Shown piece by piece: positions 34,591 through 42,634 of a DNA stretch of 64,000 bases. Each line of letters begins with the position of its first letter. The stretch's first letter is position 1. The notes beneath the pieces are model-generated. The model did not search any database. It had not been told where the DNA came from and saw only the letters and a list, made by a program, of their open reading frames with translations. The DNA is from Escherichia coli (GTDB lineage: Bacteria > Pseudomonadota > Gammaproteobacteria > Enterobacterales > Enterobacteriaceae), in the NCBI RefSeq assembly GCF_003334765.1, contig NZ_QOWT01000002.1, one strand, 5' to 3'. The position numbers and the translations under genes are program-made.

Positions 34591-35034
34591 TTAGCGTTGA
34601 CGATTAGCGATACTGTTCGTTTCCGGGTTCATACGCTCGCGGCGTGAACGCGCGGGCGTCCAGTCCAGCGCGCCAATACGCACCAGATAAACCAGACCTG
34701 CCAGTAACACAAAAATAAAAATTGCAGCTTCCACAAAGCCTACCCAGCCGCTTTCGCGGATAGAGGTTGACCATGCGAACAGATACAGCGCTTCAACGTC
34801 GAAGATAACGAAGAACATGGCCACCAGATAAAACTTGGCGGACAGGCGTAAGCGGGCGGAGCCGACCGAGTCGATACCGGATTCAAACGGCACGTTTTTC
34901 GACCTCGCGCGTGCGCGACCGCCTAAAAACCAACCGCCTACCAGCATCAGGCAACACAGGCCAATGGCAACGATAAGAAAGATAGCGAATGCCCAGTGAT
35001 GAGCGATGACTTCAGTGGATGTTGACATACTCAT
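34591..35034 (-). CDS. nuoA: NADH:quinone oxidoreductase subunit A
   Basis: 147-aa membrane protein; first gene of the operon, preceded by a 630-bp intergenic region. Confidence 0.95.
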
Positions 35035-35580
35035 TGCTTACTCATCAAAAGTAGCGCCAGATTCACTGCTCTTCACGGCAGATGGACGCCACATCGATTC
35101 ATGGGGAGGAATAAAAAAAACCTTACAATCACTGTAGAAATTCTTTTATACAGCTAATTGATGTGGTTTTTTACTCCTTTCTATAACCTTTTGTCAACTT
35201 TAACAAAAGTTTCTTCACATTAGTTTACATAATATCAACACCATTAGCATTTAATGCCCTTTCACCCCAGATCCTTGACGACTCCAGGATAATTAGATGT
35301 TGTTGAATCGTGTCCGTTGTGAAGCAATGGAAAAAATACGGGTCTATTTTGACAGGAATTTGTGTCGATTCCTCCCCCCAAAAGAGAGTATTTTCTTGAT
35401 CTGTGACACGCTTTTGTCATTCCATAACAAAAACGCAGCAACAAATTTACGTATTTTTTAACATCATTGTAGCAGGTGATTTTTTTCAGGCGATTATTTG
35501 TGCGTTCGGGACGTGAATCTCTGGTGGTTGAAAAATGAACAGTTTTGTACGTTCTGCACTATGCGATGAAGGATTTTTAC
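35035..35580 (-). promoter_or_regulatory. nuo operon promoter/leader region
   Basis: AT-rich intergenic region upstream of nuoA; individual sites not resolved by eye (a weak TTGACA-like -35 near 35192-35197 on the minus strand). Confidence 0.45.
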
Positions 35581-35581
35581 T

Positions 35582-35628
35582 AAAAAAAAGCCGCTGGGGT
35601 TTAAAACACCCCCAGCGGCTCGTTTTTT
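35582..35628. terminator. Bidirectional intrinsic terminator downstream of lrhA
   Basis: 11-bp stem AGCCGCTGGGG/CCCCAGCGGCT flanked by A8 upstream and T6 downstream, so it is U-tailed on both strands. Confidence 0.75.
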
Positions 35629-35664
35629 ACACTATTGTCTCAGGAATTATCTATCGTCCGTCGA

Positions 35665-36606
<942 letters not shown>

Positions 36607-42061: not shown

Positions 42062-42634
<573 letters not shown>

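Follow-up and report, generated by a model that had tools for sequence, protein, structure and literature searches.

Which RNAs end at the hairpin that lies between lrhA and the nuo operon in Escherichia coli? In the 64-kb window analysed here, that is, the whole stretch of DNA under study, lrhA precedes the nuo operon, which lies on the same strand, and the hairpin in the gap between them is flanked by a run of A on one side and a run of T on the other. The original prediction was that such a structure can end lrhA on the minus strand as well as any plus-strand transcript running out of the nuo regulatory region, and that it may be the sign of a transcript, divergent or antisense, that comes out of the nuo promoter region. 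We combined the anatomy and conservation of the hairpin with published RNA 3′ ends. The best explanation, to which we assign a probability of about 0.7, is that lrhA ends at this hairpin by Rho-independent termination, that the terminator belongs to the classical symmetric kind, and that it partly stops low-level plus-strand transcription as well.

The lrhA-nuoA locus

The window comes from E. coli K-12: adding 2370038 to a window position gives the MG1655 (NC_000913.3) coordinate, and the sole mismatch to MG1655 in the 5001 bases compared falls at window position 36370, inside the lrhA coding sequence. The nuoA and lrhA reading frames leave a gap of 630 bp (35035-35664), exactly as originally delimited, and the gap consists of the lrhA 3′ UTR, the terminator and the nuo control region (Table 1). 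In the TRS tables of Bar et al. 2023 (PMC10687069), the lrhA 3′ UTR is listed as 85 nt long. The annotation of MG1655 contains no features in 35035-35664, in agreement with the earlier remark that no plus-strand gene is annotated here. The nuoA-lrhA region is present in 5424 of 5426 E. coli genomes, and in the 20 listed out of these 5424 the gap carries no annotated plus-strand gene. Going upstream, one has to cross the whole nuo operon and 15 kb in all to reach the nearest annotated plus-strand gene, yfbP; the start of a plus-strand RNA reaching the hairpin would therefore have to lie in the intergenic region or, antisense, within nuo.

Table 1. Features of the lrhA-nuoA locus in window coordinates
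Feature	Position	Strand	Basis
nuoA	34591-35034	-	ORF coordinates/MG1655 annotation
nuo regulatory region and nuoA 5′ UTR, conserved	35035-35465	-	conservation profile
Poorly conserved spacer, nuo control region to terminator	35466-35581		column identity
U8 tail of the lrhA terminator (plus-strand A8)	35582-35589	-	sequence; published 3′ terminus
Terminator hairpin, 10-bp GC-rich stem GCCGCTGGGG/CCCCAGCGGC and 10-nt loop	35590-35619		sequence, fold, covariation
Plus-strand tail UCG+U6	35620-35628	+	sequence; MFE fold; conservation
Published plus-strand RNA 3′ terminus	35624-35633, dominant 35627	+	TRS LB RNAtag-seq
lrhA 3′ UTR, stop codon to hairpin	35620-35664	-	ORF coordinates
lrhA	35665-36603	-	ORF coordinates/MG1655 annotation

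The side of the gap adjoining nuoA is conserved: positions 35032-35465 have 70-100% column identity to K-12 in 74 species, with blocks of near-100% identity at 35167-35225 and 35392-35420 and variable stretches between them. In about 70 of the 74 Enterobacteriaceae species, lrhA and nuoA are about 617-648 bp apart. The constant length and the identity blocks suggest that the regulatory architecture upstream of nuo is unusually rigid. The best minus-strand promoter, TTGACA-18-TAAAAA (PWM score 10.7), has a predicted transcription start near 35161. It is the constitutive nuoA promoter of a genomic SELEX list (PMC3946193), and its predicted start agrees with the 128-nt nuoA 5′ UTR given in an EHEC Cappable-seq table, which reports sense-strand 5′ UTR lengths only, for nuoA and lrhA. 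The recovery of this promoter serves as a positive control for the promoter scan.

The nuoA leader carries a 3′ end of its own. A very strong minus-strand end was reported at MG1655 position 2405082, 10 nt ahead of the start codon of nuoA, with Term-seq scores of 475924 and 124622 (Adams 2021, PMC7815308); the TRS tables class it as a nuoA '5′ UTR' terminus (PMC10687069). The end follows a hairpin and CUACUUUUGAU in a highly conserved stretch at window 35041-35092 on the minus strand (MG1655 2405079-2405130). The stability of the fold before it is unremarkable (z -1.2), and the main texts of Adams 2021 and Bar 2023 do not discuss the end. This end could be an attenuator, a processing site or the end of a 5′-UTR-derived RNA.

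A hairpin with U-tails on both strands

The stem of the lrhA hairpin is formed by GCCGCTGGGG (35590-35599), which pairs with CCCCAGCGGC (35610-35619), and adding one A-T pair extends it to 11 bp at 35589-35620. The structure begins 45 nt past the lrhA stop codon and can form in the RNA of both strands. On the minus strand, U8 follows immediately after the stem. On the plus strand the order is stem, T-C-G and T6 (35623-35628), so that a 3-nt UCG spacer separates U6 from the stem and the U-tract on this side is imperfect. The hairpin and its A8 and T6 flanks are thus as first described, except that T6 begins 3 nt past the stem instead of abutting it. Read on the lrhA strand, UCG+U6 becomes an A6 tract upstream of the hairpin that pairs with U8, and in the minimum free energy folds of both strands the A-run is paired with the U-run outside the GC stem. 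These folds reach -26.8 kcal/mol on the plus strand and -28.9 kcal/mol on the minus strand (z about -5 on both), a stability matched by 0 of 200 shuffles; the core hairpin folds at -21 to -25 kcal/mol. The built-in terminator scan missed the hairpin because it accepts loops of 3-8 nt only, and the loop here has 10 nt.

Hairpins with tails on both sides are rare in the window. A scan for GC-closed hairpins with dG ≤ -10 and a T-rich tail on at least one strand returned 15 in the 64 kb, and only two of them are two-sided, namely the lrhA hairpin, with 8 A and 6 T, and the terminator of the convergent pair yfcC/yfcD. Over thirty dinucleotide shuffles, two-sided hairpins averaged 0.13 per window when at least 5 T were required on both sides, and there were none when at least 6 were required. 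Elsewhere in the window, the co-directional terminators of hxpA, ackA and pta have a tail on one side only and no A-tract, which shows that an A-tract is not a default feature. There are two weaker cases than lrhA: the yfbV terminator (42591-42617) has T-rich flanks on both strands between co-directional neighbours, and the rbn terminator (12505-12527) looks similar by eye and was unconfirmed under stricter counts.

Published RNA 3′ ends at the hairpin

Both strands have entries at this hairpin in the TRS data of Bar et al. 2023 (PMC10687069; Supplementary Data 3, sheet 'LB RNAtag-seq'). On the minus strand the sheet gives a terminus at 2405617-2405626 (dominant position 2405619, signal 0.985, rank 242), annotated as the primary lrhA end. 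It corresponds to window 35579-35588 with the dominant position at 35581, and bears out the claim that the hairpin terminates lrhA. On the plus strand the same sheet gives a terminus at 2405662-2405671 (dominant 2405665, signal 0.613, rank 1491) under the label 'nuoA.lrhA.IGR', with adjusted p values of 1, 2e-8 and 1e-15 and hence significance in two of three libraries. Its dominant position in the window, 35627, is the fifth T of T6 and lies 8 nt past the stem, which is the usual geometry of intrinsic termination. The lower signal on this strand (0.61) fits the 3-nt setback of the U-tract from the stem.

The record of the plus-strand end is uneven. Two other TRS call sets, as tabulated in Supplementary Data 2 (PMC10687069), have no plus-strand end beside the lrhA end. 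The Term-seq of Adams et al. 2021 (PMC7815308) has minus-strand ends here at 2405082, 2405672/3 and 2406933, with 2406691 in a second table, and zero plus-strand ends from 2405082 to 2422635. A plus-strand 3′ end near 35628 had been predicted from the sequence alone. It has a counterpart one nucleotide away in one TRS dataset, where it is an unremarked table entry, and is missing from the Adams Term-seq and from the two other TRS sets as published. A mis-mapped palindromic read was considered as the source of the call and rejected, as the asymmetric loop and flanks should keep the two strands distinguishable.

Read-through antisense RNA trimmed by 3′-to-5′ exonucleases up to a stable hairpin would leave plus-strand 3′ ends at a similar place, an account that we regard as possible but improbable. 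The hairpin is very stable (-21 to -27 kcal/mol), the offset of the U-tract from the stem should weaken true termination, and the called peak, spanning 35624-35633 in the TRS sheet, is broad. However, the dominant end in that sheet lies inside U6 and 8 nt from the stem, as termination predicts, the TRS signal of 0.61 measures a drop in coverage across the site, and the sheet has no plus-strand ends called further downstream inside lrhA. We infer that the plus-strand ends arise by termination and not by trimming.

The two published sources place the lrhA end differently. The 'primary' lrhA end of Adams 2021 (PMC7815308) is at 2405672/3 (window 35634-35635, minus strand) and precedes the A-tract and hairpin by 4-5 nt, with no end called at U8; the TRS sheet instead has the lrhA end at U8. 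Position 2405672/3 also adjoins the plus-strand terminus range of that sheet, 2405662-2405671. Endonuclease cleavage at the foot of the extended hairpin could produce the Term-seq end, as could inefficient ligation of the adaptor to a 3′ end that is fully paired; alternatively, the end could mark the edge of a sense/antisense duplex.

Conservation of the hairpin and its flanks

We examined one genome per species with LrhA, which gave 80 Enterobacteriaceae loci. A clear hairpin with a T-tract was found at 69 of these, 28-57 nt past the lrhA stop codon and mostly at 40-47 nt. Stem sequences vary widely among the 69 species, and pairing is retained through compensatory changes: 93% of the cells in the 69-sequence alignment are paired and 167 are changed on both sides, a result as high as which was seen in 0 of 500 shuffles, and sliding the partner by 1-3 columns lowers pairing to 46-62%. 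The flanking tracts are the most conserved part of the terminator in these species. At least 5 A of 8 are present in the upstream flank in 63 of the 69 and at least 6 T of 8 in the downstream flank in 66, and columns 13-15 and 53-55 of the alignment are essentially invariant, with A:U in 67-69 of 69. At the border between tract and stem, columns 16-18 covary with columns 50-52 (AU/CG/UA/GC; for example AAAAAC...GTTTTT and AAAAAT...ATTTTT). Both tracts are thus nearly invariant while the stem drifts, which indicates that the two-sided design is conserved at the lrhA locus. The antisense U-tract of Citrobacter, Salmonella and many others lies directly against the stem and is better formed than in Escherichia.

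Within E. coli the two sides differ in strength. A B2-type allele, which Nissle 1917 and ATCC 11775 carry among others, has T5 and a weakened stem base and accounts for 1043 of 5426 genomes; its A8/U8 side is unchanged, and this side is invariant in divergent E. coli. The weaker side within Escherichia is the plus-strand tract. E. coli has at least three alleles of the lrhA terminator: the K-12 type in about 4183 genomes, the B2-type, and a further form, with a different stem and loop, found in strain SCPM-O-B-8794 (L006), the representative of its species in the scan. About 200 genomes match neither query. The A- and T-tracts are retained in all three alleles.

Flanks conserved in this way might still serve the lrhA strand alone. 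The terminator would then be functionally one-way: the A-tract would be retained only for pairing with the U-tail, in termination or in 3′-end protection, T6 would be a by-product, and the plus-strand call would reflect noise or pervasive transcription. We hold this to be a possible but rather unlikely reading. The covariation at the tract-stem border (columns 16-18 with 50-52) indicates selection for complementarity, as it requires, and it would account for the lack of plus-strand ends in the Adams Term-seq and in the two other TRS sets as tabulated, as well as for a plus-strand tract that is offset by 3 nt in K-12 and shortened to T5 in the B2-type while U8 is invariant. Yet the covariation does not discriminate, since a two-way terminator also needs complementarity. 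A one-way terminator also sits poorly with a TRS plus-strand terminus at the expected position, for which two libraries give adjusted p values of 2e-8 and 1e-15, and with an A-tract whose invariance across 69 species equals that of the U-tract.

The conservation of the A-tract by itself is explained equally well by a role on the sense strand, in which its pairing with the U-tail aids termination or 3′-end stability. The sense-strand and insulating roles are not discriminated, because complementarity is needed for both. Given the sense-strand explanation, two-sidedness alone does not imply a plus-strand gene.

Search for a plus-strand gene or RNA

The 115 nt that adjoin the hairpin on the nuo side (35466-35581) have about 20-40% column identity to K-12 in 74 species, which is the background level. 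A short plus-strand RNA would have to start in this spacer. The nuo regulatory region at 35035-35465 is a possible source of plus-strand transcription, and it was scanned with the rest of the gap. A consensus scan of the region found no plus-strand promoter, and sigma-70-like PWM matches on the plus strand are weak, scoring 7.5-8.4 against 10.7 for the nuo promoter. Two of these motifs are conserved: TTTACA-15-TAGCAT, with its -10 element at 35245 and a predicted start near 35257, in 91% of species, and TTGTCA-19-CACATT, with its -10 element at 35216. Their conservation is not independent evidence, because they overlap the block of about 100% conservation at the nuo promoter.

No plus-strand reading frame made a convincing gene. 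An ORF of 54 aa at 35297-35461 is intact in 3 of 74 species and one of 37 aa at 35403-35516 in 1 of 74; a 150-aa ORF at 35535-35987 crosses the hairpin into antisense lrhA and looks spurious. A permissive Rfam scan of 34900-35800 returned nothing at the gathering score; the best match, at 23 bits against a gathering score of 40, is generic and covers the terminator hairpin alone. With this result and the 20-40% identity of 35466-35581, the region has neither the conserved body nor the family membership of an RNA gene. A literature search found no description of lrhA/nuoA antisense or intergenic transcripts. There is no sign of a new plus-strand gene. The suggestion that the nuo promoter gives rise to a discrete transcript, divergent or antisense, is not supported, given the weak 3′ call, the lack of a strong plus-strand sigma-70 promoter and the unconserved 115 nt.

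A discrete functional non-coding RNA running from the nuo control region to the terminator would have its last ~50 nt complementary to the lrhA 3′ UTR, and might act by transcriptional interference at the nuo promoters or by pairing with lrhA mRNA. We judge it very unlikely. The TRS sheet does record a plus-strand terminus, the two-sided design and both promoter-like motifs (TTTACA-15-TAGCAT and TTGTCA-19-CACATT) are conserved, and the Adams minus-strand end at 2405672/3 abuts the plus-strand range of that sheet, as the boundary of a sense/antisense duplex might. Against this, the motifs are weak and lie inside the ~100% conserved block of the nuo promoter, the 115 nt adjoining the terminator are unconserved, and the plus-strand signal in the published tables is low and inconsistent. 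The RNA also belongs to no Rfam family, is unannotated in MG1655 and in the 20 genomes listed of 5424, and has no mention that we found in the literature.

A conserved unannotated plus-strand RNA of this kind throughout the Enterobacteriaceae, reaching from the nuo control region to the lrhA terminator with its 3′ ~50 nt fully complementary to the lrhA 3′ UTR, is a long shot. If it existed, activity of the control region of nuo (respiratory complex I) could be tied to how stable lrhA mRNA is or how it is processed, and the Term-seq cut at 2405672/3 might reflect this coupling. LrhA is a regulator of the flagellar and RpoS pathways. A real plus-strand RNA would mean a further regulatory connection between the nuo control region and LrhA; the evidence for it is thin. 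We infer that the plus-strand RNA represents diffuse low-level transcription and not a gene.

Discussion

The hairpin behind lrhA has the features of an intrinsic terminator: it is stable and GC-rich, it is followed by a U-tract, and it lies downstream of a gene whose in vivo 3′ ends, in the TRS sheet, fall at the U-tract. Its assignment as Rho-independent, which should be read as putative, draws on this anatomy, on U8 and on the mapped 3′ ends. It also has the paired flanks of a bidirectional terminator, an A-tract and a T-tract (A8/T6 in K-12), both of which are retained in 63-66 of 69 species. Two convergent transcription units are missing here; they are the usual context of the class and not its mechanism.

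Textbook bidirectional terminators lie between convergent genes. The classical symmetric Rho-independent example is reportedly the E. coli tonB/P14 terminator, described by Postle and Good in 1985. The lrhA terminator shares with this type a single GC-rich hairpin, A-tract and T-tract flanks and a U-tail on each strand; 3′ ends at the flanks are reported for both strands in the TRS sheet, that of the plus strand in two of three libraries. It differs in being located between the co-directional lrhA and nuoA, with no annotated plus-strand gene, and in its imperfect plus-strand side, where UCG precedes U6. Terminators that work one way are also known to carry A-tracts: pairing of an upstream A-tract with the U-tail is said to have been reported by Chen et al. 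in 2013 to strengthen terminators. The A6:U8 pairing likewise extends the lrhA stem, and complementarity at the border is kept by covariation. Unlike in such one-way terminators, a plus-strand 3′ end is recorded at the lrhA terminator in the TRS sheet; its A-tract is as conserved as its U-tract in 69 species, whereas the neighbouring one-way terminators in the window have no A-tract.

A further class, the overlapping bidirectional terminators described by the Liu laboratory, is summarised as lying between convergent genes, as dissimilar to intrinsic terminators and as needing head-on collisions of RNA polymerases (bioRxiv 10.1101/2022.10.23.513370, on Ju, Li and Liu 2019). In both cases an RNA stem-loop sets 3′ ends on both strands in one short zone, going by that summary and the TRS sheet. 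The lrhA terminator has canonical U-tracts, co-directional genes and, in the TRS sheet, only weak opposing transcription. The convergent-gene context and the non-intrinsic form of the collision-driven class, as summarised there, rule out membership.

As a symmetric intrinsic terminator, the hairpin would have as its main job the efficient ending of lrhA mRNA about 84 nt past the stop codon, which would keep lrhA transcription out of the adjoining nuo control region downstream. In the lrhA transcript the A-tract would extend the terminator stem. Termination on the plus strand is possible because the A-tract of the lrhA transcript is a U-tract on the other strand. Antisense transcription that begins somewhere in the AT-rich nuo regulatory region, or at a point deeper in the nuo operon, may be stopped at the same element, less efficiently; without this stop it would run antisense into lrhA. 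The terminator is thus probably also a barrier to low-level antisense transcription coming out of the nuo control region, and the insulation of lrhA may be what maintains the A-tract.

Terminators of this kind are well known, and a published table already lists both 3′ ends of the one behind lrhA. The lrhA terminator is a clean example of a symmetric terminator between co-directional genes that is conserved in that form across a bacterial family. The conserved symmetric form points to selection on the A-tract side, either for termination or stability on the sense strand or for shielding lrhA from antisense read-in, which would come from a long AT-rich regulatory region.
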